Source of the DNA: an uncultured virus (IMG/VR IMGVR_UViG_3300033144_007571)
Taxonomy: Duplodnaviria > Heunggongvirae > Uroviricota > Caudoviricetes
Length of the DNA stretch: 64,000 nt
IMG/VR virus record: IMGVR_UViG_3300033144_007571
Reading direction: 5' to 3' (one strand)
Below, in pieces: positions 42,266 through 59,497 of this stretch. Both the position numbers and the translations under genes were made by a program. Numbering within the stretch: the first letter of the stretch is position 1; each line of letters begins with the position of its first letter. Below the pieces are notes generated by a model. It ran no database searches and was not told the DNA's origin. It saw only the letters and a program-made list of their open reading frames with translations.

Positions 42266-43306
42266 ATGTCAGATGTGAAAGAAGAAAAAAAGAAAAAGAA
42301 CAGACCTATTTGTATTGGTTTAGATGTAGGAACTATGCACTTATGTTGTGCAAGATCTGATTCCGAAGATGTTAAAATTACAAGAAATGTATTCTTACCA
42401 CTTGATAAAGATGATATTCAAATAACTGAACTTAGTGAAATTAGTTATGTTGAAAGCGTTGATGGAGATTTATTTATTGTCGGGTCTGATGCTTTTAAAT
42501 ATGCTAATATTTTCGGTCAGACAATTTCAAGACCAATGGAAAGAGGTTTAATTTCTCCAAAAGAAATTGCTGCAATTGATGTTTTAACTCTAATGATTAA
42601 GGATTTAATTGGAGATGTTAAAGGTCAGGATGCATATTGTTCATATTCTATTCCAGCAGAATCAATTGATGTAGGTAGATCTATAACATATCATGAAAAT
42701 GTATTTGCTAGGATATTGGGAAGTCTGGGAATTAATTATATTTCTGTTAATGAAGCAATGGCAATTATATATTCTGAATGTGCTAAAGAGAAATTTAGTG
42801 GAATTGGAATTAGTTTTGGTGCAGGTATGGCAAATGTCGCAATATCATATAAAGGAATTGAAGCATTGACATTTTCAACAGCTAGAGCTGGGGATTGGGT
42901 TGATCATAACACTGCTGAATCATTGGGGATGGTATCAAACAGAGTCACCAGTGTTAAAGAAAAATATATGAAATTTTCTGGTGAGGTTGAAGTTAAAAAT
43001 AAAAAGACAAAAAGAGTTCTTGAAGCTCTTTTCTATTATCATAAGGCATTGATTGAATATACTGTCAAGGAGATTATTAAGGAGTTTGATAAGAAGGTTG
43101 ATATTGAGGTAGACGAAGCAATTCCAATTGTAATTTCTGGCGGAACAAGTATACCAGAAGGTTTTGTTAAACTTTTTAATGATGTTATCATGACTTATGA
43201 TTTGCCATTTGAACTTTCTGAAATCAGGAGAGCTCGTAATCCATTAACTGCAGTTGCAAATGGATTGTTAATTAGAACTAAATCAGATGTTAAAGGGATG
43301 AAATAA
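42266..43306 (+). CDS. Actin-like ATPase (MreB/ParM/MamK superfamily)
   Basis: IGLDVGT (phosphate 1), RPMERG, VNEAMA (connect 1), ISFGAGM (phosphate 2), ISGGTS (adenosine), AVANG (connect 2). Confidence 0.85.
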   Translation: MSDVKEEKKKKNRPICIGLDVGTMHLCCARSDSEDVKITRNVFLPLDKDDIQITELSEISYVESVDGDLFIVGSDAFKYANIFGQTISRPMERGLISPKEIAAIDVLTLMIKDLIGDVKGQDAYCSYSIPAESIDVGRSITYHENVFARILGSLGINYISVNEAMAIIYSECAKEKFSGIGISFGAGMANVAISYKGIEALTFSTARAGDWVDHNTAESLGMVSNRVTSVKEKYMKFSGEVEVKNKKTKRVLEALFYYHKALIEYTVKEIIKEFDKKVDIEVDEAIPIVISGGTSIPEGFVKLFNDVIMTYDLPFELSEIRRARNPLTAVANGLLIRTKSDVKGMK

Positions 43307-44109
43307 TGCCAAAACAAACATTTATTACAAAAAGGGCACCTCGCCCTTATTTAAGTCCACCACATTTAAAAATTACACCACCAGACGGCGGAGGATATCC
43401 GCCTGATGATGATGATGAAAAAGAAATTAAACCACAAGAGGGTAAAAAAATGTTAGATAAAATATTAAATAGAATTTCAGAAAATGAAGAAGAACCAATA
43501 GGTACTGAGGTTAAAGAAGTTCCAAAATGTAAAAAAGGAATGCACTGGTGACCTCGTAGAAAAAAATGTGTTTCCGGGGAGAAACCAAAAATGGAAAATA
43601 AAACAATTGATGAAGCAAACAACTTACTTGATCAAACGCTGGAGGAAGTAAAGGATTCTCAAAATCCTGAATATCAAGCTGCTTTAAAATTGGCTGATGG
43701 TATTTTGGAAAATATTGGAGCTAATCATCCTTATGATCATCCCAAGAGCCTTCGAGTAACGACAAATCTAGATGGAACTACAGATGAATTTGCCGATGAG
43801 GAAGAAATGGAGGAGGATCCAGCAGCTCGAGATCACCCAGATAAGGAAACAAATTCTCTTAATAATGTTCCTAATCAAGATGCGGAATCAGAATTGGATG
43901 CTATGAAGATGGATATTGGCGAAGCATATCATACAATCATAAGATATAATATTAAGAAAATAAAAGAAAATGCTGAATATAAAAAGTTCTTTCAGAGTAT
44001 GTTAGCAAAATATGGAGTGAAATCTCCAAGTGAACTTTCAGGTGATAAAAAGAAAGCATTTTTTAATACTATAGATAAAGGGTGGAAAGCTAAAAAAGAA
44101 TCTGACTAA
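43306..44109 (+). CDS. Putative head protein with in-frame UGA (candidate selenoprotein); joins track ORFs 43306..43551 and 43591..44109
   Basis: CKKGMHW-TGA-PRRKKCV stays in frame into MENKT; C-terminal YKKFFQSMLAKYGVKSPSELSGDKKKAFFNTIDKGW domain. Confidence 0.65.
43570..43585 (+). promoter_or_regulatory. SECIS-like hairpin
   Basis: GTTTC-CGGGGA-GAAAC, starting 18 nt after the UGA. Confidence 0.45.
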
Positions 44110-44131: not shown

Positions 44132-45433
44132 ATGCTTGAACAAATGAATTCGGGAAATATGTGGAAGGATGATGTATCGAAAAGGCAATTTAAGAAAATA
44201 TCTCCAACTGAGATGAGATATTTAGGCCTTACATTGGATAATGTGAATCCCGTTGATACTTTAGAAGAACTAAGAGAATCTCCTCCAAATATTATTATCG
44301 CTGAAGCCTCTAGAAATGTGAAGTTTGTGCAAAATTGGTTCAAGGAACAGGAATTAAGAAAAAAAGTTAAATATGTAATGGGTCTAGGAGTTTTTCAACA
44401 ACTACATTTCGACAGTAAAAGCGGAAAAAATAAATTATTGAAACCATCAAAAATTAAGTTTAATAATATATATAGACCATATATTGGACAAGACGTTGAT
44501 AATGCAACCATCCTTGTTTTTAGAACAGGAGGAATTGGAGACCTTCTGTTCATCCAACCTAATTTGAGATATCTCAAAGAAAAATATCCCACATGTACTA
44601 TCTGGTTTGCATGTGGTCCGCAATATCAACCAATGGTTAAAAATTGGAGTTGTGTAGATAAGGTATTAGATCTTCCTTTTACATTTAGTAGATTAAGAGA
44701 TTCTGATTATCATATGCTATTTGAAGGGGTTATAGAGAGATGTAAAGAAGCAGAAACGAGTAATGCTTATAATTTATTTTCTCACTGGCTTGGACTTGAT
44801 TTACCTGATAATATACTTCTTCCAAGACAAAAACCAATAGAAGAATTAGTTGACAAATGTAAAGAGATTTTAGATAAATGGAAAATTGATAACTTTATCC
44901 TTATGCAATTAAGAGCTAGTTCTCTGATTAGAACTCCAAGACATCAGTTTTGGGCAAAAATTATAAATGAGCTTAATAGAAGGGGAAGAAATGTTATATT
45001 AACCGACAATCCTAGACAGGCAGAAAATATAGACAAGTTTATAGGAGAGCTTGAGCATAAAAATACTTTTAATTTTTGTAAATATTCAGAGTCAATTGCA
45101 TATACAATTGCTTTAGCGAGTTTGACTGATGGGGGTTTGGCTACAGACTCTGCTTTGGGACATATTGCAGCTTCTTTAGATGTTCCATTTGTAGGAATTT
45201 ATGGTCCTTTTCCTGGTTATATTAGATTAAAAACTTATCCGAAAGCAATGTGGATTGATGCAAGAAGACATTGTGCTCCCTGTTTTATTCATGGTCATAA
45301 ACCATGCCCTCAAGCTGCTTCAGATGGATATAGTCCATGTTATGACGATTTAATTAATTCTGATGAAAAACTAAAAAATTTAATTGATAAGGTAGAGGAT
45401 TATATTTATGTACAAAGTATTCCTAACAGTTAG
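44132..45433 (+). CDS. GT9 (heptosyltransferase-like) glycosyltransferase
   Basis: FRTGGIGDLL, LKEKYP, TDSALGHIAASLDVPFVGIYGP, CAPC. Confidence 0.85.
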   Translation: MLEQMNSGNMWKDDVSKRQFKKISPTEMRYLGLTLDNVNPVDTLEELRESPPNIIIAEASRNVKFVQNWFKEQELRKKVKYVMGLGVFQQLHFDSKSGKNKLLKPSKIKFNNIYRPYIGQDVDNATILVFRTGGIGDLLFIQPNLRYLKEKYPTCTIWFACGPQYQPMVKNWSCVDKVLDLPFTFSRLRDSDYHMLFEGVIERCKEAETSNAYNLFSHWLGLDLPDNILLPRQKPIEELVDKCKEILDKWKIDNFILMQLRASSLIRTPRHQFWAKIINELNRRGRNVILTDNPRQAENIDKFIGELEHKNTFNFCKYSESIAYTIALASLTDGGLATDSALGHIAASLDVPFVGIYGPFPGYIRLKTYPKAMWIDARRHCAPCFIHGHKPCPQAASDGYSPCYDDLINSDEKLKNLIDKVEDYIYVQSIPNS

Positions 45434-46235
45434 AAATCGCCTTGAAATAACAAAGATGTGTATAGAAGCATTAAAGAGACATTCGTCAATGCCGTATGAT
45501 CTATATGTTTATAATAATGCTACTAATTATATAGTTAAAGAACACTTCAAATATTTTGGTGATTTATATGAAAAGGGGGAAGTTGCTCAAGTAACTTTCA
45601 CTACTCCAAAATCTACATTTAATGCTTTTAGTAAAGCATCTGCATGTAATTTCTTTGGTAAACAACATGAGGAAGATCCAAACAAGGATAAATATGATTT
45701 TTTATTGTTTATTGACAATGATATTATACTTACTCCTGAGTTTGACAAGAAACTTAAAGTGTCCTGGCACTATGTTAAAAAGAATAAATTAGACCATATA
45801 AAAGTTATAGGGCAGATACCTGGTGGAATTAAGAATCGGGAACAAACATTAAAATTCGCCGGAATGATGGGAAGAGTTGGTCGTCTTGGAGGATCTGGAC
45901 TTTGGTCAGTAAAACCGTCATTCTTTTCAGATGTTGGATACCTTAATTTAAAATCTCTAGTAGGTCAGGATAAAAAACATGACCAAATGTACTGGGTATT
46001 ATTAGGAAAAGCTACTAGAGGCAAACCATATATTATGGGGATAAATCAAAAACTAGGAATTCACTGTGGAAGAATAGCAGGATCAGTCTGTAATAAATTA
46101 ACAAGAACTAGAAATAAAAAAGAGAAAACAGAGGTTATTAAGTTTAAGGAAAAAGAAGTAAAGATTTCAAAATATAATTTCGATGAATTTTATAAAATGA
46201 TTTTGGATGATAAATCGTTAGTAAAAGATTGGTAA
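45408..46235 (+). CDS. GT2-like (GT-A) glycosyltransferase
   Basis: LTVRNRLEITKMCIEAL, VYNNAT, FIDNDI. Confidence 0.75.
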   Translation: MYKVFLTVRNRLEITKMCIEALKRHSSMPYDLYVYNNATNYIVKEHFKYFGDLYEKGEVAQVTFTTPKSTFNAFSKASACNFFGKQHEEDPNKDKYDFLLFIDNDIILTPEFDKKLKVSWHYVKKNKLDHIKVIGQIPGGIKNREQTLKFAGMMGRVGRLGGSGLWSVKPSFFSDVGYLNLKSLVGQDKKHDQMYWVLLGKATRGKPYIMGINQKLGIHCGRIAGSVCNKLTRTRNKKEKTEVIKFKEKEVKISKYNFDEFYKMILDDKSLVKDW

Positions 46236-46238
46236 ATT

Positions 46239-47177
46239 ATGAGCAAGAAAAAAGATGCAGTTTTATTTGGTCCCTTTGTGGGTGAATTTTACTGGGAATG
46301 TGGTCGGTTTGCTCCAATGTTATCATATATGCTTTATAAACAATATAAAAATAAGGAAGTGGATTATGTAGTTTATACTAGAGAAGAGAGATTTGATTTA
46401 TATGGAAAGCATGCTAATATTTTAGTCCCATTAAAAATACCCGGAGATTATTCAGAATATATGCCAGAATGTTTTAGATTACCTGGTTTTCCGAAAACAG
46501 AATATAATTCTTTGGCAAGAAAATTTAGGAAAAAATATGAAGAAAGATATAATATAATCAAACACATTTTTCCAGATATAAGAAAACCAGCATTTTTAAA
46601 TAAGAATCAATATTCACAAAGTATAATGCATTATAAATATAAACCAAGGAAAGCTAATTATGAGTTGGTTGATGAATTTCTTCCTAAAGATGGAAAACCT
46701 TTTGTTGTATTAGCACCTAGATTCAGAAAAGGATTCAAAAGAAATTGGAAAAGATGGCAAGATTTCTATGACCTTTTGGGAAGAGATGTTGGTTTAATGA
46801 GAAGATATAATTTTATTGTTTGTGGAAAAGATGGAGAATATAAACCTGATAGACAAGATCGTTTTTTAGATATGACTAAAATACAAATAAATGGTAATGC
46901 ATCGTTGGCTGGTATTTTGTTAGCAATTTTAGAAAAAGCACATTTTACATTTGGTTCACAATCAGCAATTCCGAATATGTCATTGTTATATGGGGTTGAG
47001 GTTTTTGAGTTTGGTTGTCAAAAAAGTTTACATACTAAAACTTACAATGTTAAAAACACTCCCATAACTTTTATTGAAAATAAAAAATATGATTTAGATC
47101 CGAAAAGAGCGTTAAATGAAATGAAGCGCTTATTAGAGAGAAAAAGGAGAAAAGAAAATGGAAAGAGCAGTAAATGA
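46239..47177 (+). CDS. GT-B-like putative glycosyltransferase
   Basis: GPFVGEFYWE start; GSQSAIPNMSLLYGV; paralog of 47384. Confidence 0.6.
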   Translation: MSKKKDAVLFGPFVGEFYWECGRFAPMLSYMLYKQYKNKEVDYVVYTREERFDLYGKHANILVPLKIPGDYSEYMPECFRLPGFPKTEYNSLARKFRKKYEERYNIIKHIFPDIRKPAFLNKNQYSQSIMHYKYKPRKANYELVDEFLPKDGKPFVVLAPRFRKGFKRNWKRWQDFYDLLGRDVGLMRRYNFIVCGKDGEYKPDRQDRFLDMTKIQINGNASLAGILLAILEKAHFTFGSQSAIPNMSLLYGVEVFEFGCQKSLHTKTYNVKNTPITFIENKKYDLDPKRALNEMKRLLERKRRKENGKSSK

Positions 47178-47382
47178 TTGGATTAAAGCTAATAGCGGTG
47201 AAATATCGTCCATTCAAAGAATTTTAATTGAGCAATCGTATGCTGGGCAAGATGGTGTATTTAATTATATGAAAATTCATAATATACTTGGAGGATGTAT
47301 TATTGAAATCACCAAATTACAAACACAAGTAAATGAATTGAAAATAGCCTTAGCAGAAAAACAAGAAAAGAAAGGAAGCTAG
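47158..47382 (+). CDS. Small coiled-coil protein
   Basis: AGGAG SD. Confidence 0.55.
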   Translation: MERAVNDWIKANSGEISSIQRILIEQSYAGQDGVFNYMKIHNILGGCIIEITKLQTQVNELKIALAEKQEKKGS

Positions 47383-47383
47383 A

Positions 47384-48163
47384 GTGAAAGAATCAGCATA
47401 TTTGTTTGGTCCATTCATAGGAGAACTGTATTGGGAATTATATAGATTTGCCCCCTATGCAATGCATATGAAAAAAACACATCCAGAAGAATCTCTTATT
47501 GTTTTTACAAGACCTTCTCGGTTTGACTTATATGGAAGATATGCTGATGTTCTTGTGCCATTAAAGCTTAATGGAGATATTGTAGAAAAACAAGAATGTT
47601 TTAAATTAAATGGAGTATCATTAGAAGACTATAAATTTATAGCTCATTTTTTAAAATCCAAATATAAAAAAAAGTATAATATAGTAGGACATTTCTATCC
47701 AAATATTTTGTGGAGATATAATGTTAAATGGCAGTTTCCTAGACATTTGATGAATTATGATTTTCTTCCTAGAAAGGGTAATGAAATAATTGTAAATTCT
47801 CTATATGGGGATTCTACTGCCCTTATTCTTATTGATAAGAAAGATTCTACTACAATAGATAATTTAGAATATGAGCTTATATCTATAGATGTTTTTTCAT
47901 CAATTATAAGAAAACATACAAAAACAAAAGATTCAGTTTCTCTTATTGGTTGTTTAATTGAACTAATACGAAAGGTAAAATTTGTAGTGGGAGATATGGA
48001 TTCAACTACTTCTAAATTGGCTCTACTTTTGAAAAAACCTTTAATTTCTGTTAATGAAACCATGGATTATGATTCTATATCATTATTAAATCCTTTTGAT
48101 ACCCCTGTTATAAATTGTAAAAACTTAAAGGAAGGAGTTGAGATATATGAGAATAACATTTGA
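47384..48163 (+). CDS. GT-B-like putative glycosyltransferase (paralog of 46239)
   Basis: GPFIGELYWE, RFDLYG, LVPLK, ECF shared. Confidence 0.6.
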   Translation: MKESAYLFGPFIGELYWELYRFAPYAMHMKKTHPEESLIVFTRPSRFDLYGRYADVLVPLKLNGDIVEKQECFKLNGVSLEDYKFIAHFLKSKYKKKYNIVGHFYPNILWRYNVKWQFPRHLMNYDFLPRKGNEIIVNSLYGDSTALILIDKKDSTTIDNLEYELISIDVFSSIIRKHTKTKDSVSLIGCLIELIRKVKFVVGDMDSTTSKLALLLKKPLISVNETMDYDSISLLNPFDTPVINCKNLKEGVEIYENNI

Positions 48164-49142
48164 TCTTAGAAGAGTGGGATTGGGAAATAATGGAGGATCA
48201 TCAACTTTAGTGAAGTCTGGAAATACTTTAGTTGATATGGGGCATGAAGTTATATTTGTTGATAGTATGAAAAATAAGTATAAATGGACTCCATTAAAAG
48301 CTAAACATATGGTAAGGCAGGATAATAAAAATTTACCTGATGCAGATGTTATAATTGCTTCTGGTTATAAGTCTGTATCGAGGACAATGAAATCACCATC
48401 TGGATGTGGAATTAAATCTCATTGGATTAGAGCATGGGAATATTGGCAATATTCTGAGAAAGACATAATTGATAGAGTTTTAAAACCTGATACTGTTAAA
48501 CTAGTTAATAGTATTTGTCTTCAAGATAAATTAAAAAAATATGGAGTTGATTCACATATTATCAGACCAGGATATGATTTTGATCAACTATATCCAATTC
48601 CTAATTATAGAAAAAAGGGAAGAGTTGTTATCGGTGGTTTATATCGTGCTGGCACTCACGGAAGAAGAAAACGAACACAATGGTTATTTGAGGCTGCTAA
48701 TCATTTAAAAAGAAAGAACTCAAATGTAGAATTTTGGTTATTTGGGTCTGAAGCTGATCCTGGGAACTCGATTATTGATATATATCTTAGAAGTCCTTCA
48801 ATGGAAGATAAAAATAAATTTTATAATAGTGTTGATATATGGATGGCCCCTACTCAATCAGAAGGTTTACACTTACCTCCAGCAGAAGCTATGATGACTG
48901 GGTGCCCTGTTGTTTCAACCAATGCTGAACTGTCTGGAACTCAAGATTATGTGTTGGATAGTCGTACTGGTCTTGTATCAAAAAATGACATCTCCTCATT
49001 TATAAACTGCATCGAATGGTTGATTGCTAATAGTAAGATGAGACGAATTATGGGAAAAGCTGCTATAAAAAAGATTCATGAATTAGGTGATAGAAAAGTA
49101 AATATGCAAAAATTGGTTGATCTTTTTACGGAGTTAAAATGA
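48147..49142 (+). CDS. GT4-family glycosyltransferase (start revised)
   Basis: SEGLHLPPAEAMMTGCPVV. Confidence 0.85.
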   Translation: MRITFDLRRVGLGNNGGSSTLVKSGNTLVDMGHEVIFVDSMKNKYKWTPLKAKHMVRQDNKNLPDADVIIASGYKSVSRTMKSPSGCGIKSHWIRAWEYWQYSEKDIIDRVLKPDTVKLVNSICLQDKLKKYGVDSHIIRPGYDFDQLYPIPNYRKKGRVVIGGLYRAGTHGRRKRTQWLFEAANHLKRKNSNVEFWLFGSEADPGNSIIDIYLRSPSMEDKNKFYNSVDIWMAPTQSEGLHLPPAEAMMTGCPVVSTNAELSGTQDYVLDSRTGLVSKNDISSFINCIEWLIANSKMRRIMGKAAIKKIHELGDRKVNMQKLVDLFTELK

Positions 49143-49957
49143 AAATATATACAGTTAAAGAGATATTAAATAAGCTAGAAAATTGTATTGAATACAAAAA
49201 ATCATTTTCACATATTCGTTTTGGAGATGGTGGTGTTAAATTTTTACATTCTATATTATATGGAGATATAGATCAATTAAAAATTATAGTTAAAAAGGAA
49301 GGTCTCCCTAGATCTGAAATTGTAAAAATATTTGAATTGTGGGGATATTTTGCTAGGCGTGCTGATTTTATTGATACTCCAGAGGTATATTTTACTGGAG
49401 AGTTTTGGCCAAGATTAAGAAAACCAACGAAGGGGATAACAGATAAAACTGCAGCTAGATTAATGATGTGGAAAGAATTATATAACTCTTCTGAATTTGA
49501 TAATGAAAATTATTGTAATCCTGAGTCGAACTATTTAATGATTTTAAGAAGGGAGGGAAAAAGAAATCTATTGGATGTGATGAAGGGAAGGAAAATTTGT
49601 CTTATAACAGTTTTTCCAGAAATCAAGGAAGTTCTAAGGGGTTATGATATTGATATACTAAAAATTGCTGGTCATTTCGAGAATCAGTATGATAAATCAT
49701 TTGAAAATATTGTTAGTATAATAAAAAAGACAGCAAGTCAATATGATTTATGGTTAGTAGCTGCTGGAGAACTTGGAAGAATATATTCAGGTATTATAAA
49801 AGAATGTGGTGGGCGAACAATAGATATTGGGTTTGTTATTGAATTTTTTCTTGGTCAACCTTTGCATCCACGATTGAAATTGTTTATGGAGAGGAGTATG
49901 AATCCATTAGAGTTAGTATTAACTAATGAAGGAAAAAAATATGATAAATATATTTAG
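49139..49957 (+). CDS. GT-D fold (DUF1792-like) glycosyltransferase
   Basis: SHIRFGDG, LVAAGELG, TIDIG. Confidence 0.7.
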   Translation: MKIYTVKEILNKLENCIEYKKSFSHIRFGDGGVKFLHSILYGDIDQLKIIVKKEGLPRSEIVKIFELWGYFARRADFIDTPEVYFTGEFWPRLRKPTKGITDKTAARLMMWKELYNSSEFDNENYCNPESNYLMILRREGKRNLLDVMKGRKICLITVFPEIKEVLRGYDIDILKIAGHFENQYDKSFENIVSIIKKTASQYDLWLVAAGELGRIYSGIIKECGGRTIDIGFVIEFFLGQPLHPRLKLFMERSMNPLELVLTNEGKKYDKYI

Positions 49958-49969
49958 GAGACTAAAACC

Positions 49970-50881
49970 TTGAAGCTCATAATTCCAGTTGAGTCTATCT
50001 TTCAGAAGAAGGGCGGCTTGATTATATATGATCCTGACCACAATAAAATCTTGAAGCAATACGTTCATGATAAAAAATGGGAGTTTCATAGAGTTGGATG
50101 GAGGGGTGGTGTATTATATGGAGAGTGTTTTATAGCAACAGATTGGACTGATCTCCATTATTTTGATATTAAGAATTGGAAGTATATGAGAACATTCAAG
50201 AAAAATACATTTAATGATTTACACTATTTAGAAATATATAATGATAAATTATTTGTTGTAAACACAGGTCTTGATGCTATTGAAGTTTTTAAAAATCCAT
50301 TAAGACCTGTGTTTGAAAAGATTGAATTTATATTTAAAAAGAATAAAATGTTTAAAAATAGAAAGATAGATTTACATAAGGATTACAATAAAAGACTGAA
50401 AATAAAACCCCATTCTTGTCATCCAAATTGTATATCATTTCAAAATAAAAAGATATTTGTCAATTGTTTTGGAAAGGAACAAAAGCGTGGCACTGGAGAA
50501 GTGATAGAGCTAAATTCTGGAAAAAAGGTTCTTTCAAGATCATATGATTGTCATGATGGCATCTTTTATAAAGGAGATTATTTTTTAACATGGACACGAC
50601 ATGCAACTGTTATTCAAGTTAGGGATTTAGCAAATAAAAAATTTCCTTTTAAAAGTCCAGGTGAAATGATACGAATTAAAGCAAGAGGGTGGTGGAGAGG
50701 AATGACTATTGCAAATGATAAAATATATGTTTTTGCTAGCGATGGTTATAAGAAATCAAAAAGAACTACTAGGATTAGAATAATAGATTTAAAAACTAAA
50801 GAAGTTAAGGGTTGGAGAATACCAGTCAAAGATGGTGTGCACTGGGATACAATTTATCAACCAAATATTTTGGAGTACTAA
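49970..50881 (+). CDS. Beta-propeller protein in glycan cluster
   Basis: NDLHYL, VVNTGLD, CHPNCI, CHDG, GWWRGM repeats. Confidence 0.6.
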   Translation: MKLIIPVESIFQKKGGLIIYDPDHNKILKQYVHDKKWEFHRVGWRGGVLYGECFIATDWTDLHYFDIKNWKYMRTFKKNTFNDLHYLEIYNDKLFVVNTGLDAIEVFKNPLRPVFEKIEFIFKKNKMFKNRKIDLHKDYNKRLKIKPHSCHPNCISFQNKKIFVNCFGKEQKRGTGEVIELNSGKKVLSRSYDCHDGIFYKGDYFLTWTRHATVIQVRDLANKKFPFKSPGEMIRIKARGWWRGMTIANDKIYVFASDGYKKSKRTTRIRIIDLKTKEVKGWRIPVKDGVHWDTIYQPNILEY

Positions 50882-50883
50882 AC

Positions 50884-51639
50884 ATGAAATTTCCTGATTT
50901 TGTTATTATAGGGGCAGCTAAATGTGGGACCACAGCGTTGTGGATGAATCTTGATAAACATCCGGAAATAAATATGGGGCGAAAGGGATATAGTTCAATT
51001 GAGGTGCATTTTTGGGGATATAAGTTTTGGAGTAAGGGGTTTGATTGGTATAAAAATTTGTTTGATGGACCAATATGTGGAGAAAAGAGTGTTGATTATT
51101 GGATTAGTCGAAAGTCTTTAAGACTAATGAAGCAGCACATTCCAAATGTAAAATTAATTTTATGTGTTAGGAATCCAGTCGACCGGGCATATTCTAATTA
51201 TCAAATGCACCAGAGAGCAAACAAAGTTGGAAAATTTACATTTGAGCTATTTAAAAGACAATACGCAAGAAAGGGAAAATATGATAATCATATTCAGAAT
51301 AATATTTTGAATTTTTTTGATAAGGATCAATTATATGTTTGTGTAGCAGATCATATGAAAAACAATACTACAGAAGAGATGAGAAAATTATTTAAGTTTT
51401 TGGGAGCTAAGGATTTAATACTACCAACAAAAGAAGTTCCTGGTGATAGAACTAAGAGAGCTCCAACTTTGGGACAAGATATTGATTTAAATAGAAAACA
51501 GAAGTTTTTTAGAGTATGGACTAAGGGACAAAATACATTAACTGGGTCAATGAGAAAAAGGTTATTAGAATTTTATAAACCTCATAATAAAAAGCTCTTT
51601 GATTATTTGGGTTATGAAATAAAGGAGTGGAAAAAATAG
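50884..51639 (+). CDS. PAPS-dependent sulfotransferase, heparan-sulfate-ST-like (start revised)
   Basis: PDFVIIGAAKCGTT (5'-PSB), GEKS, RNPVDRAYS (3'-PB), FYKPHN. Confidence 0.9.
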   Translation: MKFPDFVIIGAAKCGTTALWMNLDKHPEINMGRKGYSSIEVHFWGYKFWSKGFDWYKNLFDGPICGEKSVDYWISRKSLRLMKQHIPNVKLILCVRNPVDRAYSNYQMHQRANKVGKFTFELFKRQYARKGKYDNHIQNNILNFFDKDQLYVCVADHMKNNTTEEMRKLFKFLGAKDLILPTKEVPGDRTKRAPTLGQDIDLNRKQKFFRVWTKGQNTLTGSMRKRLLEFYKPHNKKLFDYLGYEIKEWKK

Positions 51640-52427
51640 TGCTAATACATACATATTTTACAGATGGTTTTTACAGATTTGGAAAGATTTTTATCGAATC
51701 TTTTAAGGTATTTCATGGTGAAGAGATGCCAATGGTCATCACAACAAGAAACCTGAATCGTCAGCAATTAAGGGAGTTAAAATCTCTTTATAAAAATTTA
51801 ACCATTCTTAACAAAAAGATTAACATGGAGAATATTAGTAAAAGAACTGGAAAAAGTGTTGAAACTTTAAAAAAGCTCAAGCACGAAATTGAGTTTCATC
51901 ATGTTAGATGGAAGAAGGGAAATGTAATATGGAAACAATATATTTCTGTAGAGGATAGATATAGAACTTCGATAACAGAAGCAATGCATTATAAGGGAGA
52001 TGAAGAATTTATGATGCATATAGATGCTGACAGTTATATAAGAAAGAGTTTAGATCCTATCTTTAAAATTATTAAAGAAAATGATATAACTCTTATTTTT
52101 AGATTAGATAGACCAAAGATTAATAGAAAGATTTTTGGATCACTGGTGGGATTTAAATTAGGAAAAAGAGCTGATTTATTTATGAGAAAATGGATTAAGC
52201 ATATTGATGCTAAGAGTTTAAAAGATAAACCAATCGGATATGGTCAAACCTCTTGTTATTTAGCATATGATGAGCTAAAAGATATTGGAATAGAATGGGG
52301 AACAATTCCAAAGAAATGGGTTAAATCTAATTTAAATGAACAATCTCTTATTTGGTCAGGTAATAGTTCTAGAGGTAAAACAATGACTTTAAATATTTTT
52401 GAGAAGGACTTCAGGAGGAAAAAATGA
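51627..52427 (+). CDS. GT-A nucleotide-diphospho-sugar transferase
   Basis: HIDADSYI DxD motif; YGQTSCY; paralog of 53685. Confidence 0.65.
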   Translation: MEKIVLIHTYFTDGFYRFGKIFIESFKVFHGEEMPMVITTRNLNRQQLRELKSLYKNLTILNKKINMENISKRTGKSVETLKKLKHEIEFHHVRWKKGNVIWKQYISVEDRYRTSITEAMHYKGDEEFMMHIDADSYIRKSLDPIFKIIKENDITLIFRLDRPKINRKIFGSLVGFKLGKRADLFMRKWIKHIDAKSLKDKPIGYGQTSCYLAYDELKDIGIEWGTIPKKWVKSNLNEQSLIWSGNSSRGKTMTLNIFEKDFRRKK

Positions 52428-53140
52428 TAATACATAATAAATATATCTTTGTTCATTTAACAAAAACTGGAGGAACCTTTGTAAGAGAATTTTTAAAGAA
52501 ATATATTCAAGGGCATATAATACAACTTCAAGGAAAATCAATACAAAAGCATGGTCCTTTATCTGATATTTCAGATTCTGTTCTTGAGAGTAGACCTACA
52601 TTTGGGTTTATTCGTAACCCATTGGATTTCTATATTTCTCTATGGGCAGCAAATATAACAAAAAGAGCAACTAAACATAGACCTGACAGAAAAAAGTGGT
52701 TTAAAGATGTCGAAGTGAAAAAGGATCCAAATAAGTTTATTAATTTTCTGATAAACAAAGCAACTTCTAATGTGAATTATTTTGATTTTCCATTGATGCA
52801 TAAACTTGATATTGGAGTATTAACATATAGATATTTATATTTATACTATAATCATGATATATTTAAGGAACCAAATTGGGTAAAAAAACATAAAAAATAT
52901 AAGTTGGTTGATCATGTTCTTTTGTTTGAAGATGGGTTGGCAAAGTCTTTGGATAACCTATTTGAACATCATATTTTTCCTCTTAATAAGATACAGAAAA
53001 AAGCGCTTTATAAATACCCACAGAGGAATAAATCTAAACATAGTTATTTTATGGATTATTATGATAAGAAAACTATTGAGCTTGTTCAACATAAAGATAG
53101 ATTTATATTCTATCGACATTATCGTGACTTATTAGATTGA
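52424..53140 (+). CDS. Sulfotransferase (Sulfotransfer_2-like)
   Basis: IFVHLTKTGGT, FIRNPLDFYIS, NKSKH..FMDYYD. Confidence 0.85.
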   Translation: MIIHNKYIFVHLTKTGGTFVREFLKKYIQGHIIQLQGKSIQKHGPLSDISDSVLESRPTFGFIRNPLDFYISLWAANITKRATKHRPDRKKWFKDVEVKKDPNKFINFLINKATSNVNYFDFPLMHKLDIGVLTYRYLYLYYNHDIFKEPNWVKKHKKYKLVDHVLLFEDGLAKSLDNLFEHHIFPLNKIQKKALYKYPQRNKSKHSYFMDYYDKKTIELVQHKDRFIFYRHYRDLLD

Positions 53141-53151
53141 ATGGAGGAAAG

Positions 53152-53688
53152 ATGGTAAAAGAAGAAGAGAAGCGGTGGACTTATATGGTAAGACTATTAA
53201 GTAATTTTCCCCATGAAATAGGTGCAGAAATTGGAGTATGGAGAGGAACTTTTACATTGAATCTGTTGCGTGGATTACCAGGAATAAAGACGTATCATTG
53301 TGTAGATATATGGAAACATTATGATGGCCATACAGAAACTTTAAATCCACAAGGAAAAATGGCGAGATCCGATATGAATAAAGTGTTTCTAGAGTTTAAA
53401 CGAAAGGCGAAACCTTTTATAGATAAACTTATTATACATAGAATGAAAAGTATTGAAGCAGCAGATCATGTTGCAGATGATAGTTTAGATTGGGTGTTTA
53501 TAGACGCTAATCATGCATATGAATATGCATTAGAGGATATAAAGGTATGGACTCCAAAAGTCAAAAAGGGTGGTATAGTATCAGGTCATGATTATGGGAA
53601 TGATAGATTTGGAGTAACACAAGCAGTTAATGAATCTTTTGATGATTTTAAGTTAGGTAGTAATTATGTATGGTGGTTAATAAAATGA
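53152..53688 (+). CDS. SAM-dependent O-methyltransferase (Methyltransf_24-like; start revised)
   Basis: GAEIGVWRG, VFIDANHAYE, GGIVSGHDY. Confidence 0.85.
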   Translation: MVKEEEKRWTYMVRLLSNFPHEIGAEIGVWRGTFTLNLLRGLPGIKTYHCVDIWKHYDGHTETLNPQGKMARSDMNKVFLEFKRKAKPFIDKLIIHRMKSIEAADHVADDSLDWVFIDANHAYEYALEDIKVWTPKVKKGGIVSGHDYGNDRFGVTQAVNESFDDFKLGSNYVWWLIK

Positions 53689-54494
53689 TAATACATTCTA
53701 CTTTTACAAATGGATATTATGAATTTTCTAAGTTGTTTTTGCGCTCTTTCAAAACTTCTAATGGAGAAAACTTAAAAATAGTTTTTACAACATTTGATTT
53801 AACTTCTGATGAAATGACTGAACTGAAGAGAATTTATTCTAATCTTATAATTCATAATAAAAAGTTTAATTATAAAGAGATATGTAAAGAGTTGAATATA
53901 ACAGTCAAACAAGCAAAAGATTTACAGTATAAAGTAGAGCATGAACATGCAAGGAAAAATACATCCAGACCAAAGTGGAAAATGCATGTTGCTGCGGAGA
54001 ACCGAGTGAAAATAGATATACCATTCATTATGAAAAAATATGAATCAGAGGAATTGATAGCACATTTTGATATAGATATGTATTTCAAAAAATCGTTAGA
54101 TTCTATGTTTAAGATAATGGAAGAAAATGATTTTACAATTATGTATAGGCCTTCCATGAAAAAAGACTGGCGAAAAGTTTGGATGTGTGCTATGGGAATT
54201 AAAACCAATAATATTCATGCTTCTAATTTTATAAGTGAGTGGGGAAAAGAGCTTGATAAAATACCTTTAAGAAATAAACCGTTTGCTTATGGGCAGACTT
54301 CTTGTTATAATGCATATGTTAGATTTTTAAAGGAATCTAAGATAAAATTTGGGAATATACCAGAAAAATATATTGTGGCTGGTTTTGATGGGACAGAAGA
54401 TGCTCTTATTGTTTCTGGAAATAAATCTGCAGTTGGAAAAGATAGATATGTAAGGAGATTTAATGCAGATTTGAAAAAGAGGATTTTAAAATGA
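53685..54494 (+). CDS. GT-A nucleotide-diphospho-sugar transferase (start revised)
   Basis: HFDIDMYF, YGQTSCY. Confidence 0.65.
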   Translation: MIIHSTFTNGYYEFSKLFLRSFKTSNGENLKIVFTTFDLTSDEMTELKRIYSNLIIHNKKFNYKEICKELNITVKQAKDLQYKVEHEHARKNTSRPKWKMHVAAENRVKIDIPFIMKKYESEELIAHFDIDMYFKKSLDSMFKIMEENDFTIMYRPSMKKDWRKVWMCAMGIKTNNIHASNFISEWGKELDKIPLRNKPFAYGQTSCYNAYVRFLKESKIKFGNIPEKYIVAGFDGTEDALIVSGNKSAVGKDRYVRRFNADLKKRILK

Positions 54495-55114
54495 AAAATA
54501 AAAAAAAGAAATTTGGTGGAGTTTGGAGATTAGAAGAAGAGGTTCCTTGGTTGACAAAAAAATCAGTTGAGTTCATACAAAAAAATATAACTAAACATCA
54601 TAATGTTTTAGAGTTTGGTTCTGGCGCAAGCACTATATTTTTTGCTAGAAATTGTAATAAAGTTATTTCTTTTGAAAGTGGAGGATATAGTGTGAGAGTA
54701 AATAATTTGAATAGATCATTACTCTGGTATCAAAGACTTATAGAAAAGATGGAAAAATTTAAAATTAAAAACGTGGAACTATATTTGATACAGGGATATC
54801 CTGCATCCTCTATAGTTTATGATCATATATTAAACTCTTTACCAAATGATTTTTTTAATTGGGTTTTAGTAGACGGAAGTAACAGAAATTTATGTATAGA
54901 AAGAGGTATAGAGAAACTAGTTATAGGAGGGTATTTAATTATAGATAATTATGATCATCTTCCTGAAAAGAAATTTCTAACTGATATGAAATTATATATG
55001 AAGAACGAATATTGTATAGAAACAATGGATAAATTATTAGATGGTTGGGAGAGATTCAAATTTGATCAGAAAGATTGGCCAGGTTTGGGTACAATTATAT
55101 TTAAAAAACCATAA
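54491..55114 (+). CDS. SAM-dependent methyltransferase
   Basis: PWLT, VLEFGSGAST, VLVDGSNR, GGYLIIDN. Confidence 0.8.
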   Translation: MKNKKKKFGGVWRLEEEVPWLTKKSVEFIQKNITKHHNVLEFGSGASTIFFARNCNKVISFESGGYSVRVNNLNRSLLWYQRLIEKMEKFKIKNVELYLIQGYPASSIVYDHILNSLPNDFFNWVLVDGSNRNLCIERGIEKLVIGGYLIIDNYDHLPEKKFLTDMKLYMKNEYCIETMDKLLDGWERFKFDQKDWPGLGTIIFKKP

Positions 55115-55123
55115 GGAATAAAA

Positions 55124-55651
55124 ATGGCAATTAGAAAGATAACTATTAAATACATACAAGAAATGATAGATCTTGTTGGATTTAAAATGAAGAACCTTAG
55201 AATGTGTGAACTAGGAAATCAACTCATTATGGATAATTATGTACCCTTTAAAGTTGCGAAGAAATATTATGAATCACTTGGTGTTATACATACTTCAATT
55301 GATTGGAATGGTGAAGATGGAGCATTACCTCTTGATCTCAATAATCCTATTTCTATTGGTAAGTTTGATGTAATTACAAGCGTTGGTTTTATTGAGCATG
55401 TTAAAAACGAAGAACAATTAAATGAAAATATACATAACTTAACTGTTGATGGTGGTATTATTATTCATATTGCCCCAAAGGTGGGAAGTTATAAAAAACA
55501 TAAATGTCATAGATGGTATGTTGAAGACTTTTTTTATGATCTTGCTAAAGAAAGAAACTATGAAATATTAGATATGGGAATTATTAATCCAAAGAATATG
55601 AAAAGTTTTGATTGTATTAGATGTACTTTAAAGAAACTGGGGGAAAAATGA
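55124..55651 (+). CDS. SAM-dependent methyltransferase
   Basis: MCELGNQ, SIDWNG, FDVITSVGFIEHV. Confidence 0.75.
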   Translation: MAIRKITIKYIQEMIDLVGFKMKNLRMCELGNQLIMDNYVPFKVAKKYYESLGVIHTSIDWNGEDGALPLDLNNPISIGKFDVITSVGFIEHVKNEEQLNENIHNLTVDGGIIIHIAPKVGSYKKHKCHRWYVEDFFYDLAKERNYEILDMGIINPKNMKSFDCIRCTLKKLGEK

Positions 55652-56586
55652 AATATTTAATAACTGGCGGCTCGGGTTTTATTGGAACAAATTTAATTTT
55701 AAAGCTTTTAGAATTAGGCCACGAAGTAACTACTATAGATAAAGAAGACTTAAATGATGCTGTGCGTGGAGGTGTGATACATCTATTTGCTGATGTTAGT
55801 AAAGATGACTTAACTCCATGGTATGAGAAACAAGATGTAGTTATTCATTTAGCAGCACAAAGCGGAGTAGTACCTTCTATTGAAGATCCAGAGTATAATT
55901 TTCATAACAATGTTTTAGGGACTTTTAACTGTTTGGAATCTACAAGAAAAGCTGGAGTAACAAGATTTGTATTCGCATCTTCGGGTGGAACTGTTGTTGG
56001 AGATTGTGATCCTCCTCTACATGAAGAGTTAGTTCCCAAACCTAGAACTCCATACGGTTGTAGTAAATTATGTGGAGAAGCATATTGTATGGCATATTCT
56101 GCTACATATGGAATAGATGCTGTAGCTTTAAGGTTTTCTAATGTATATGGTCCTCATTCATTAGCTAAAACTCACAACTTAATTCCTTCGTTTATAATGA
56201 ACGCTATTGAAGATAAAGTATGTACAATTTATGGAGATGGATCATTTAAAAAAGATTATATTTATGTTGAGGATTTGATTCAAGGTATCATACTGGCTTC
56301 TATATCTGAAGGGGTAGCAGGAGAAGTTATTCAAATTGCTACTGGTGCTGGAAATGATGTAAAAACAATTTTTGATATTATAGAAACATTAGCAGCGAAT
56401 ATTTGTAAGAGAAAATTAAAAGTTGAATATGGCGAAAGTAGATCTGGAGATATTAACTATGATTACTGTGATATTAGTAAAGCTGAACGAATTCTTAAGT
56501 ATTCTCCTAAGCATAATGTATATGATGGGATTGTGAAAACTTTTGAATGGTATACAAAAAATTATGGAGGAAATAAGAATGGATAA
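55648..56586 (+). CDS. NAD-dependent nucleotide-sugar epimerase/dehydratase (start revised)
   Basis: ITGGSGFIG, HLAA, FASS, YGCSK, RFSNVYGP. Confidence 0.9.
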   Translation: MKYLITGGSGFIGTNLILKLLELGHEVTTIDKEDLNDAVRGGVIHLFADVSKDDLTPWYEKQDVVIHLAAQSGVVPSIEDPEYNFHNNVLGTFNCLESTRKAGVTRFVFASSGGTVVGDCDPPLHEELVPKPRTPYGCSKLCGEAYCMAYSATYGIDAVALRFSNVYGPHSLAKTHNLIPSFIMNAIEDKVCTIYGDGSFKKDYIYVEDLIQGIILASISEGVAGEVIQIATGAGNDVKTIFDIIETLAANICKRKLKVEYGESRSGDINYDYCDISKAERILKYSPKHNVYDGIVKTFEWYTKNYGGNKNG

Positions 56587-57781
56587 TATAATTGTTTTTG
56601 GGGGAGATGGTTTTTGTGGATGGCCAACTAGTTTGGGACTTTCTGCTCTCGGTTATAATATAACTATTGTTGATAACTTAGTTCGTAGAAAAACAGATAT
56701 TGAATTGGCATGTGATTCTCTTACTCCAATAAAATCTATTTATAAAAGACTTGAAACATGGAAAAGAATAACAGGCAAAACAATCCATTTTGAATATATT
56801 GATGTAGCAGATCATTATCATCGAGTTTTAACATTAATACAAGATCTCAAACCGAAAGCTATAGTTCATTTTGCTGAGCAACGAGCTGCACCTTATTCAA
56901 TGAAATCTCCTTTTCATAAACGATATACTGTAAATAATAATGTTAATGCTACTAATAATATTTTATGTGCTATTGTTGAGTCTGGTATTGATGTTCATAT
57001 GGTTCATTTAGGAACAACTGGATACTATGGATACTCTTCAGTAGGAATGAAAATTCCTGAAGGGTATTTAAAAGTTAGAGTTGATGTTGAAGGAGTTGAA
57101 AAAGAATTAGAAATTATGTATCCTCCACACCCTGGTTCAATTTATCATATGACGAAATGTCAAGATGCTATTATGTTTTATTACTACAATAAAAATGATG
57201 GAGTACGCATTACAGATTTACATCAAGGAATTGTTTGGGGTACTGAAACAGATGAGACAAAAATAGATGATAATCTTATTAACAGGTTTGATTATGATGG
57301 AGATTATGGAACAGTTTTAAACAGATTTTTAATGCAAGCTGCTGTTGGTCATCCATTGACAGTTCACGGTACAGGAGGACAAACTCGAGCATTTATACAT
57401 ATAAAAGATACTGTTAAGTGTGTAAAGATGGCAATAGAAAATCCCCCTGAAAAAGAGGACAAAGTTAAAATATTTAATCAGACTTCAGAATGTTTAAATA
57501 TAAAAGATTTGGCATTGAAAATACAATCAATGACTAGATCTCAAGTTAGATATTATAAAAATCCAAGAAATGAAGATCCAAAAAATGATCTTGAATTTGT
57601 GAATGAGGGGTTTAAAAGTTTGGGGTGGAATCCAATTATGTTGGATGATGGTCTTATGATTGAAATAAATCAGATTGCAAAAAAATATAGTGGTAGATGT
57701 GATAAATCGAAGATTATTGCTACATCTGTTTGGAAAGAAGGAATGGATGTTGATAGAGTAGGTAGTGAGGTTGAGGTTTAA
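56579..57781 (+). CDS. sqdB: UDP-sulfoquinovose synthase (start revised)
   Basis: GGDGFCGWPT, HFAEQRAAPYSMKS, PGSIYHMTK, TDLHQGIVWG, NRFDYDGDYGTVLNRF, GTGGQTRAFIHI. Confidence 0.92.
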   Translation: MDNIIVFGGDGFCGWPTSLGLSALGYNITIVDNLVRRKTDIELACDSLTPIKSIYKRLETWKRITGKTIHFEYIDVADHYHRVLTLIQDLKPKAIVHFAEQRAAPYSMKSPFHKRYTVNNNVNATNNILCAIVESGIDVHMVHLGTTGYYGYSSVGMKIPEGYLKVRVDVEGVEKELEIMYPPHPGSIYHMTKCQDAIMFYYYNKNDGVRITDLHQGIVWGTETDETKIDDNLINRFDYDGDYGTVLNRFLMQAAVGHPLTVHGTGGQTRAFIHIKDTVKCVKMAIENPPEKEDKVKIFNQTSECLNIKDLALKIQSMTRSQVRYYKNPRNEDPKNDLEFVNEGFKSLGWNPIMLDDGLMIEINQIAKKYSGRCDKSKIIATSVWKEGMDVDRVGSEVEV

Positions 57782-58485
57782 TGAAAATTTTAGTTATTGG
57801 TTTTCCTAGAAGTGGAACGACTCTAATGTATAGGACAATCAGAAGACATCCACAAATGGATAAAATGTTATTTGAAACAAATATGATGAAATTAATAGGA
57901 ACTCAAAGAGAAAGTAGATTAAATTTAGTATTCCCAAAAGGAAAAAATATTGGAGAAAAAGTTATTTATGAAAGAGAGATAATGGGAAAGAAACGTAGTA
58001 ATGCTCCAACCCCATTTGAATATTGTAAGAGATGGAATAAAATGTTTAAGAAAGAAGCCAGAATCATTCAAATTATAAGACACCCTTATGATGTTTGGAA
58101 CTCTCTTTTAATAAAAAAATATGTACGAAGAGATATAAAATATGCTATCATTAAAATGGAGGAAAGATACTTTAATTTTGTCCCTACTTATTTTACTGCG
58201 ATTGATAGATTCAAAAATTGTTTGACTATCAAATATGAAGATATAGTATCAAACCCAGAGATTGTTATTCCAAAAATTTATAAGCATTGTGGATTGGACC
58301 CAAAACACTTCCCTAAAGAAGAAATGAGATCATCAAGACTTTTTGCTTATAAAAGAAAGGGATTTAGAATTAATGAACCAAGATTGAGAGGTCAAAGAAA
58401 TAAATTTGTGAAAATAATGAATAAGAATATTGATGAGTGTTTAGAAATACTTAATCAGTTTCCTGGTCCGGAGTATGAGAAGTGA
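57781..58485 (+). CDS. Sulfotransferase (Sulfotransfer_3-like)
   Basis: IGFPRSGTT, IIRHPYDVWNS, IKYEDIV. Confidence 0.85.
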   Translation: MKILVIGFPRSGTTLMYRTIRRHPQMDKMLFETNMMKLIGTQRESRLNLVFPKGKNIGEKVIYEREIMGKKRSNAPTPFEYCKRWNKMFKKEARIIQIIRHPYDVWNSLLIKKYVRRDIKYAIIKMEERYFNFVPTYFTAIDRFKNCLTIKYEDIVSNPEIVIPKIYKHCGLDPKHFPKEEMRSSRLFAYKRKGFRINEPRLRGQRNKFVKIMNKNIDECLEILNQFPGPEYEK

Positions 58486-59171: not shown

Positions 59172-59173
59172 CT

Positions 59174-59494
59174 ATGGGGTGTACAGAGAATAAAGGAATA
59201 TGGAGATGTGATGATTGGGTCGACGCATGGGATTTATCTAAATTTTATGGATGTACTGAATCTCCTAATATTGTAATTGATTTTGATAATATTGATTGTG
59301 ATGGAGGAACAACCCTAGCAGAAGTAAATCGAAATGGTGAAAGATTTTGGACTAGAGTTATTGATTGTCCTAGATGTGAAGTAATTGTAGCAATTGTAAT
59401 ATGTGATTTGGTTTTTGACCATCCATTTTCAAAGGGAGATAGAGTACAATATGAACTAAGGAATGTTTATAATATTAGAACAATTGGAGAATAA
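59174..59494 (+). CDS. Cys/Asp-rich hypothetical protein
   Basis: 106 aa. Confidence 0.55.
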   Translation: MGCTENKGIWRCDDWVDAWDLSKFYGCTESPNIVIDFDNIDCDGGTTLAEVNRNGERFWTRVIDCPRCEVIVAIVICDLVFDHPFSKGDRVQYELRNVYNIRTIGE

Positions 59495-59497
59495 AAA

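Follow-up and report, generated by a model that had tools for sequence, protein, structure and literature searches.

A candidate phage selenoprotein gene in which an in-frame TGA takes the place of the middle cysteine of a small, recurrent module

In the genome of an uncultured member of the Caudoviricetes (IMG/VR record IMGVR_UViG_3300033144_007571), two consecutive open reading frames (ORFs) at 43306..44109 raise the question of whether the TGA that divides them is a stop codon or is read as an amino acid, and if so, as which one. We analyzed a stretch of 64,000 nucleotides (nt) of this genome, which is referred to as the window. An initial annotation had described the two ORFs as lying in one frame and being separated by the TGA at 43549-51 and 13 sense codons, and we find exactly this layout; the codons between the TGA and the ATG at 43591 encode P-R-R-K-K-C-V-S-G-E-K-P-K, and the read-through product has 267 residues. 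Nowhere else on the window's coding strands does a TGA join a pair of open stretches of at least 60 codons. Judging from the sequence comparisons presented below, the two ORFs probably form one gene, whose UGA codon 82 is read as selenocysteine (Sec) by the machinery of the host. The features of the locus, all on the plus strand, are as follows (lengths of proteins are given in amino acids, aa).

43306..44109, plus strand: the complete recoded gene, which comprises 267 codons and a TAA stop and contains a single in-frame TGA at codon 82; defined by the ORF layout and by fused homologs
43306-43551, plus strand: first ORF, 81 aa, ending ...C-K-K-G-M-H-W-TGA, in the same frame as the second ORF
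43528..43572, plus strand: Cys/Sec module C75-K-K-G-M-H-W-U82-P-R-R-K-K-C88-V; from the motif in relatives and an AlphaFold2 model
43549..43551, plus strand: in-frame TGA, the proposed Sec codon, in the context TGG-TGA-C; the middle Cys of the module in Cys forms
43567..43587 (core 43570-85), plus strand: hairpin resembling a selenocysteine insertion sequence (SECIS), core GUUUC-CGGGGA-GAAAC; from folding and comparison
43576..43593, plus strand: GGGGAG and the ATG at 43591, which could serve as an internal ribosome-binding site and start codon of a 172-aa C-terminal product; from the sequence
43591-44109, plus strand: second ORF, 172 aa, in the same frame as the first ORF
43972..44100, plus strand: C-terminal helical domain (YKKFFQSMLAKYGVKSPSELSGDKKKAFFNTIDKGWKAKKE); phrog_28651, E = 5.5e-08, and AlphaFold2

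What do relatives of this protein have at codon 82? A profile-free exhaustive search returned 1077 relatives at E <= 0.001. Sixteen of these were retrieved, 13 of which span the motif region, and all 13 contain at least one copy of the motif C-x2-G-x2-[WF]-C-x5-C-[IV], with a Cys where the window has its TGA; this bears out the earlier suggestion that the middle Cys of a Cys motif has been replaced. The consensus of the module is C-x2-G-x2-W-[C/U]-P-x3-K-C-[IV], and it occurs once in the window. A search covering 5.8 billion proteins returned the fused homologs P0003 (213 aa, 78% identical), which has Cys at codon 82 and reads across the junction as ...KCQEGMYW-C-PRRKKCISGEKPKMENK... with no interruption, and P0005 (338 aa, 41% identical). 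The initial annotation had proposed looking for alternation of TGA and TGY among homologs, and such alternation is found in the three contigs, L081, L082 and L083, that were obtained from a scan of metagenome contigs. L081 and L082 encode P0003 and have TGT at the recoded codon within an uninterrupted 213-aa ORF, whereas L083, from another metagenome, has TGA at the same codon, followed by an identical 30 nt. L081 and L082 are the nearer relatives of the window (85% nt identity), while L083 shares 76% nt and 61% aa identity with it and is syntenic over a NUDIX gene, a 182-aa gene, an actin-like gene, the recoded gene and a Glyco_transf_9-like gene. Since L082 is nearer to the window than L083 is, this Cys form falls within a group of stop forms, which would be most simply explained by a change from TGA to TGT in the L082 lineage. 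Conservation of the TGA is further supported by two N-terminal ORFs, P0015 (70% identical) and P0161 (56% identical), whose last residue is the Trp of the module (...GM[HR]W). In IMG/VR, protein patterns of P0001 gave no close relative, a DNA pattern for the close clade gave none, and an alignment query returned matches to the common C-terminal domain only, with no close full-length relative.

Purifying selection acts on both flanks of the TGA. Between the window and L083, the ratio of non-synonymous to synonymous change (pN/pS) is 0.41 over the 33 codons before the TGA and 0.34 over the 172 codons of the second ORF. The best conserved are the 13 codons that separate the TGA from the ATG, with 92% nt identity and a pN/pS of 0.15, as compared to 74-78% nt identity in the flanks. 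The changes within them amount to two synonymous ones in a single Arg codon and one non-synonymous K-to-E replacement, and the family consensus P-x3-K-C-V is kept.

The arrangement is not confined to the window and its close relatives. IMG/VR was scanned with a broad DNA pattern, the module with TGA, and with a tighter pattern that allowed TGA, TGC or TGT. Among the matches listed, the broad pattern gave two clear cases, L097 and L179. The tighter pattern gave 52 loci, which the analyst, reading their frames, classed as 13 family-like TGA loci, 20 family-like Cys loci and 19 chance or unclear matches (the latter include a 7-plus-6-codon match that is present six times and out-of-frame matches rich in GC); about 4 in 10 module copies from the scan use UGA rather than Cys. 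The tighter scan omitted L179 though its sequence fits the pattern (the identical copies L219, L232 and L235 were listed), and the scans of the collection are therefore not exhaustive. A TGA is present at the same module position in 16 IMG/VR loci. After deduplication there are eight TGA lineages, seven of them in addition to that of the window: the window clade, L096, L097, L113, L123, a cupin clade (L219, identical to L179, L232 and L235, together with L228), a DUF5661 clade (L220 and L248) and L245. L097 and L245 belong to the window's own family and share its C-terminal domain, while Cupin_2 is matched in L219 (E = 8e-15) and L228 (E = 5e-15) and DUF5661 in L220 (E = 1.9e-17). The module is N-terminal in L097, L113, L219, L228 and L245, interior in the window and L123, and located 10-16 residues from the C-terminus in L096, L220 and L248. 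Downstream of the TGA, other lineages continue in frame into Cupin_2 or the window-type C-terminal domain. In L097, the TGA is preceded at a distance of 12 codons by a GAGGA site and an ATG, and the next ATG comes 27 codons later with a 3-nt spacer; L219 has an AGGAGG site and an ATG 21 codons 5' of the TGA, the in-frame Cupin_2 domain follows, and the gene's terminator is itself a TGA. With starts so near the TGA, a true stop would leave half-module peptides of 12-21 aa. Among cellular genome contigs the module pattern had 15 matches, GC-rich out-of-frame hits and two Cys-rich proteins of metagenome-assembled genomes, which provided no TGA form and no clue to a host.

Is a signal for Sec insertion associated with these TGA codons? 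The hairpin GTTTC-CGGGGA-GAAAC that was initially reported to begin 18 nt after the TGA is present at 43570-85. Its 6-nt loop starts at +23 on a 5-bp stem that can be extended by 2 bp over a bulged U (43567-87, 7 bp in total), and the core and extended forms have energies of -2.0 and -3.1 kcal/mol, respectively. It had also been claimed that G occupies the first two loop positions; the loop, CGGGGA, has G at position 2, but not at both. The hairpin is identical in L083. All eight TGA lineages contain a stem-loop that begins at the third Cys codon or shortly after it and whose loop starts at +21 to +28. The loops are of the type N-G-[G/U], whereas the stems differ in sequence and in the peptide that they encode:

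Window and L083: GUUUC-CGGGGA-GAAAC
L096: UAUCC-CGGCG-GGAUA
L097: UCCCUG-CGGGU-CAGGGA
L113: UGCGUAC-CGUUG-GUGCGUA
L123: UCC-CGGUG-GGA (read by eye)
L219: UGUAUC-CGUGA-GAUGCA
L228: UGCAUC-CGUGA-GAUGUA (read by eye; scripts ranked another hairpin, at +37/+38, first)
L220: CCCUC-CGGGUA-GAGGG
L245: UUCCUG-AGGGU-CAGGAA

In the DUF5661 clade the loops are CGGGUA and CGGGAC. MAFFT matched the hairpins by sequence rather than structure, and the stems were therefore compared by script; between L097 and L245 the stem shows a C-G to U-A double change, and between L219 and L228 it shows two one-sided changes that keep the pairing.

As a control, the best simple hairpin was scored within the spacing window given a priori by the bacterial SECIS (bSECIS) model. 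Its energy ranges from -2.0 to -9.0 kcal/mol in the TGA lineages (n = 8) and from +1.4 to -3.7 kcal/mol in the Cys lineages (n = 7; Mann-Whitney one-sided p = 0.0019), and the unconstrained minimum free energy (MFE) over +10..+48 is -4.5 to -9.8 in the former and -0.25 to -5.0 in the latter (p = 0.0019); the lineage definitions and loci for this test were chosen by the analyst, which counts against the weight that it can carry. The bSECIS model of Zhang and Gladyshev, as given in PMC13188914, requires a loop of 3-9 nt on a stem of 4-16 bp, spaced 16-37 nt from the UGA, with an MFE <= -7.5 kcal/mol and with G at loop positions 1 and 2 (mostly N-G-[G|U]-N), and the same paper states that a subset of real bSECIS elements fail the model. 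The window hairpin lies within these limits in loop size, stem length and spacing, and its CGGGGA loop is of the expected type, as are the N-G-[G/U] loops of all eight TGA lineages. Against the -7.5 kcal/mol of the model, the hairpin of the window reaches -2.0 or -3.1 and the +10..+48 segment -5.1; over this segment, five of the eight TGA lineages reach -7.5 or lower.

Can the TGA be explained without Sec? One explanation is artefact or decay: the TGA could have arisen through faulty sequencing or assembly, or through a recent nonsense mutation in a gene that is being lost. A single base change is enough to turn TGT into TGA, and the four read runs that were mapped contain only fragments of relatives, with no listed call at 43549-51; in the read runs searched for the window the best share was 0.13 and none contains it, and the one long read-derived record (X6, 1521 nt) has the L082-type N-terminal deletion. 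The TGA is nonetheless no read error, because the independent metagenome contig L083 has the identical TGA in an identical context, and TGA recurs at the module position in the 16 IMG/VR loci. A conserved TGA with selection on both sides (pN/pS 0.34-0.41), and with the Cys form L082 nested among stop forms, therefore rules out a read error or a decaying gene for practical purposes, and we regard this explanation as very improbable. The same holds for a code change, in which TGA is read as sense throughout the phage or host (code 4 or 25). These genomes are AT-rich (~31% GC), and stop-codon recoding is known in phages (PMC9523058). However, TGA ends 19 of the 80 window genes of at least 100 aa (TAA ends 56 and TAG 5, counted on the coding strands), the 64 kb contain one TGA-joined pair of ORFs on the coding strands, and the ORF cover of related loci, which is 0.63-0.94 under code 11, gains just 0.00-0.15 with TGA as sense; in addition, the L219 gene stops at TGA.

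Another explanation is a genuine conserved stop. It would delimit an 81-aa and a 172-aa protein, the latter made from the ATG at 43591, and the shared frame would be the trace of an ancestral fusion. This fits the GGGGAG at 43576-81, located 9 nt 5' of the ATG, the Met at this position, which is conserved across the family even in fused forms, the separate prediction of the pieces by gene callers (P0002, P0004, P0015, P0160 and P0161) and the energetically ordinary hairpin of the window. It is difficult to reconcile with the 13 supposedly untranslated codons, which are the best conserved in the gene and keep P-x3-K-C-V, or with the placement of the TGA exactly at the conserved Cys in eight lineages. 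Moreover, the upstream piece of L097 and L219 would be a 12-21-aa half-module, the remainder of L097 has no good start, L096 and L220 have only 10-16 codons after the TGA and yet keep the module consensus, and the hairpin accompanies the TGA rather than a start codon. A conserved stop thus appears unlikely, even though the caveat raised initially, that GGAG in the hairpin may be a mere Shine-Dalgarno sequence, is correct in that GGGGAG precedes the ATG by 9 nt; it does not extend to the hairpins of the other TGA lineages, which have no start codon after them. The same GGGGAG and ATG are present in L082, the uninterrupted Cys form. Read-through of the UGA by near-cognate tRNAs (Trp, Cys or Arg) instead of Sec, with a mixture of short and long products, seems to us decidedly unlikely. 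UGA-C is a weak terminator in E. coli, and the coat extension of phage Qbeta is an example of programmed read-through. All TGA forms have the context UGG-UGA-CC, and TGA-C, which is common to the in-frame TGA and all TGA modules, is nearly avoided as a terminator in the window, where it occurs at one of the 19 true TGA stops. The W-x-P context is, however, conserved in Cys forms too, which points to a protein motif rather than a recoding signal, and leaky termination leaves unexplained that the site is always at the Cys codon and that a hairpin with a SelB-type loop occurs at 21-28 nt with TGA and not with Cys.

Several observations weigh against the selenocysteine reading itself. The Shine-Dalgarno-like GGGGAG and the ATG 3' of the TGA make separate translation of the C-terminal 172 aa possible. 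The hairpin of the window is weaker than that of any other TGA lineage and by itself no better than chance, being matched by 42 of 300 shuffles; the 71-nt fold of 43540-43610 (-10.7, z = -0.37) has a different shape. Within the window's clade, the Cys form L082 folds at -4.9 over +10..+48 versus -5.1 and -3.9 for the TGA forms, and the conserved P-x-G codons give C- and G-runs, and hence hairpin potential, in Cys forms too. Some module copies (P0005, P0068 and L207) have Asp or no residue at the middle position. P0015 and P0161 are known from protein alone, such that the stop codon that ends each is not readable. Most known selenoproteins have Sec in a CxxU/UxxC redox motif, and the C-x6-U-x5-C site lies outside it. 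As for the machinery, five related phage records, one of them complete at 277 kb, contain no tRNA-Sec above the cut-off; the matches to the tRNA-Sec model in phage records are ordinary Leu, Ser and Trp tRNAs below the cut-off, the best being Leu/Ser tRNAs. Neither SelB nor SelD was found in five records, namely four of those searched for tRNA-Sec and that of L097, which makes six different records overall. Each of the five searched for SelB and SelD carries exactly one module, and the window has no tRNA and no Sec-related Pfam match. Neither phage-protein matches nor cellular contigs gave a clue to the host, whose Sec machinery we infer: a 632-aa protein had no match, and the UvsX-like protein reached ~27% identity at best. 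The Desulfobacterota host suggested at the outset thus has no support, nothing on the host having been found.

Because no phage-borne Sec machinery was found, any Sec insertion must use host factors. With these points taken into account, we favor decoding of the UGA as Sec. The recoded codon is conserved and alternates with Cys, coding continues in frame and the hairpin goes with TGA; the inserted residue would be Sec, and SelA, SelB, SelC and SelD of the host would do the work. The original proposal of a host-decoded 267-aa selenoprotein is thus supported by comparison, through the Sec/Cys alternation, the in-frame coding, the SECIS-consensus hairpin and the use of TGA as a stop elsewhere. 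In this mechanism, the ribosome would meet the UGA within the small cysteine module C-x6-U-x5-C, and the hairpin, which follows the third Cys codon and has a G-rich loop at +23 from the UGA, would recruit host SelB with Sec-tRNA(Sec), such that Sec is inserted in place of termination. The product would be a 267-aa protein with Sec for the middle Cys, beside an invariant Trp on a predicted β-hairpin. A selenium-dependent switch between long and short products at the UGA, as raised by the initial annotation, is at most a possibility. Since ~20 codons accommodate the UGA together with the 18-nt spacer and the hairpin, the recoding signal can travel with the module, and a portable signal fits the occurrence of the TGA module at the N-terminus, in the middle or at the C-terminus of unrelated phage proteins. 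We therefore lean, with less assurance than for the gene of the window, towards the broader view that phages, jumbo phages included, encode their own selenoproteins via a portable selenocysteine cassette, in which a ~20-residue Cys/Sec β-hairpin module with an internal UGA and a minimal SECIS has been grafted onto helical-domain, cupin, DUF5661 and other proteins.

How does this arrangement compare with known systems? Its mechanism looks like that of an ordinary bacterial selenoprotein gene, the prototype of which is E. coli fdhF: the in-frame UGA takes the place of the homologs' Cys, the stem-loop lies within the ORF and has a SelB-type loop, and the same gene can end in an ordinary TGA. Its unusual aspects appear to be the phage genome, the C-x6-U-x5-C site, the compactness and the recurrence on unrelated proteins. 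Unlike bacterial selenoprotein genes, it is found in phage genomes without their own Sec machinery in the records searched, its C-x6-U-x5-C module is not of the CxxU type, and module and signal occur together on unrelated proteins; unlike the bSECIS model, the hairpin is short (5-8 bp), and that of the window is far weaker than -7.5 kcal/mol. Among eukaryotic viruses, selenoproteins are represented by the glutathione peroxidase of molluscum contagiosum and fowlpox viruses. As would be the case here, these viral genes depend on the Sec insertion machinery of the host, but they are captured host enzymes with a eukaryotic SECIS, whereas the phage genes have a bacterial-type signal and no cellular TGA counterpart was found. 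Phage stop reassignment (TAG to Gln, TGA to Trp) likewise has a stop codon read as sense in a phage gene; the present case differs in being site-specific, with one codon per genome, always at a Cys position, and with TGA still serving as the stop of 19 of 80 genes.

Catalogues of Sec use cover bacteria, archaea, eukaryotes and some viruses of animals, few in number. Bacteria are described as able to recode UGA (PMC12386605) and a few viruses as redefining UGA as Sec (PMC8310308); a 2026 review of the prokaryotic selenoproteome has no mention of phage, virus or viral (PMC13188914), and according to a marine survey, viral sequences are few or absent in the selenoprotein families that it examined (PMC9402790). 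We found no case of a phage selenoprotein in the full-text literature, from whose coverage subscription journals are mostly absent. If the Sec reading is true, phages exploit a rare, host-specific recoding system, and expression of the whole protein depends on the host's Sec machinery and selenium supply. The gene would then provide a new marker for host prediction, because only Sec-competent hosts could express the protein, and gene callers would systematically split or shorten such genes. The UGA and SECIS would make up an unusually compact natural unit, ~45 nt in 15 codons, that is of interest for Sec-insertion engineering, and C-x6-U-x5-C beside an invariant Trp would represent a Sec site of a new kind, distinct from the usual redox motifs.

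To what kind of protein does the module belong? In an AlphaFold2 model built from 34 sequences (mean predicted local distance difference test, pLDDT, of 70), residues 71-90 are predicted to form a β-hairpin with a pLDDT of 89-90, in which the strands are M79-U82 and K87-S90. At the other end of the protein, the phrog_28651 match spans residues 128-170 of the 172-aa ORF; this C-terminal domain is widespread in phages, with at least 382 IMG/VR relatives, and its last 45 residues are predicted to be helical (pLDDT >90). Profile searches with the window and module proteins assigned no Pfam family to the module, and Foldseek against the PDB returned nothing at E <= 0.001; weak matches to EGF-like and furin-like Cys hairpins and to the AcrIE3 helix bundle (E >= 4.7) were not used. 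The earlier suggestion of a head-associated protein receives no structural or family evidence from these profile and Foldseek searches. One protein with three copies of the module does match a Pfam profile:

L207 895-1896, minus strand: 334-aa protein with three module copies, two of them with Asp for the middle Cys; CBM_14 match

This protein matches positions 27-48 of the 53 in the CBM_14 profile (PF01607) with E = 1.5e-08, and no other sequence in this analysis gives a CBM_14 score. The sequence pattern of the module matches the C-terminal hairpin of CBM_14, C-P-x-G-x-x-[FW]-x6-C, but the match covers only a third of the domain, CBM_14 does not include the middle Cys/Sec and sugar binding is without support. 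L207 has Asp for the middle Cys in two of its copies; the constant pair is thus formed by the first and third Cys, and the middle Cys/Sec beside the invariant Trp is the variable and presumably functional position. A Sec at this site could have a redox role or a metal or ligand role, through a selenylsulfide or a metal or ligand contact. The window protein itself has no match to CBM_14 even at E up to 5. The module presumably also bears a resemblance to the 2-cysteine adaptor domain of large DNA viruses (PF08793), but this profile was not returned for any of nine module proteins at E up to 5.

Two further sequence patterns were observed near the module. Many fused relatives (P0017, P0051, P0054, P0068, P0069, P0083, P0130 and P0014) have ...FFKE[DE]xxM... 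after it, which resembles an in-frame ribosome-binding site and start codon like the GGGGAG-ATG of the window (43576-43593); internal initiation may therefore be widespread in this protein family. In the cupin and DUF5661 proteins, the module is accompanied by a small domain, I-K-x-K-I-K-E-F-F-K-x-N-P-N-P-S-D...G-I-D-P-H-K-F-E-E-H-I-Y, which is found in L228 (898-1584, minus strand), L220 (1471-1998, minus strand) and L096; these proteins resemble mosaics of mini-domains.

A tRNA-like gene of 104 nt was noted beside tRNA-Trp and tRNA-Cys in two jumbo phages of the cupin clade:

L259 1501-1604, the same as G003 27312-27415: tRNA-like gene; a like match is present at G001 80243-80346

The gene in L259 is not called by ARAGORN, and its best Rfam match is tRNA-Sec with 29.8 bits (cut-off 47). 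Its acceptor stem has 7 bp, its variable arm is long and its anticodon-like stem of 9 bp carries the 7-nt loop UAUUAUU, and it therefore has no UCA anticodon.

The surroundings of the recoded gene are those of a phage genome with ~31% GC and dense coding under the standard bacterial code. Replication genes in the window encode a UvsX-like recombinase (1e-49), a clamp loader (3e-57) and a Dda-like helicase (5e-79), and there are also weak baseplate matches, an SLT lysin and an amidase. Directly upstream of the recoded gene is an actin-like gene, the stop of which overlaps the start of the recoded gene:

42266-43306, plus strand: actin-like ATPase, Volactin family (PF25216, E = 2.5e-72)

The syntenic copy in L083 has 346 aa, and among deposited phages the actin-like gene matches only LR745208 and LR756511, two uncultured huge phages, at 32-38% identity. 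Downstream of the recoded gene is a long glycan-modification cluster (44132-59872, plus strand), which contains a Glyco_transf_9-like gene (family 9 glycosyltransferase), GT1 and GT-D-like glycosyltransferases, two sulfotransferases, an APS kinase, two NAD-dependent epimerases/dehydratases and several methyltransferases. The accessory genes of the window are the following:

18734-19609, minus strand: queuosine-salvage protein
19651-20055, minus strand: rubrerythrin-like protein
21115-21777, minus strand: LigD 3'-phosphoesterase domain
61546-62400, plus strand: papain-family C1 peptidase

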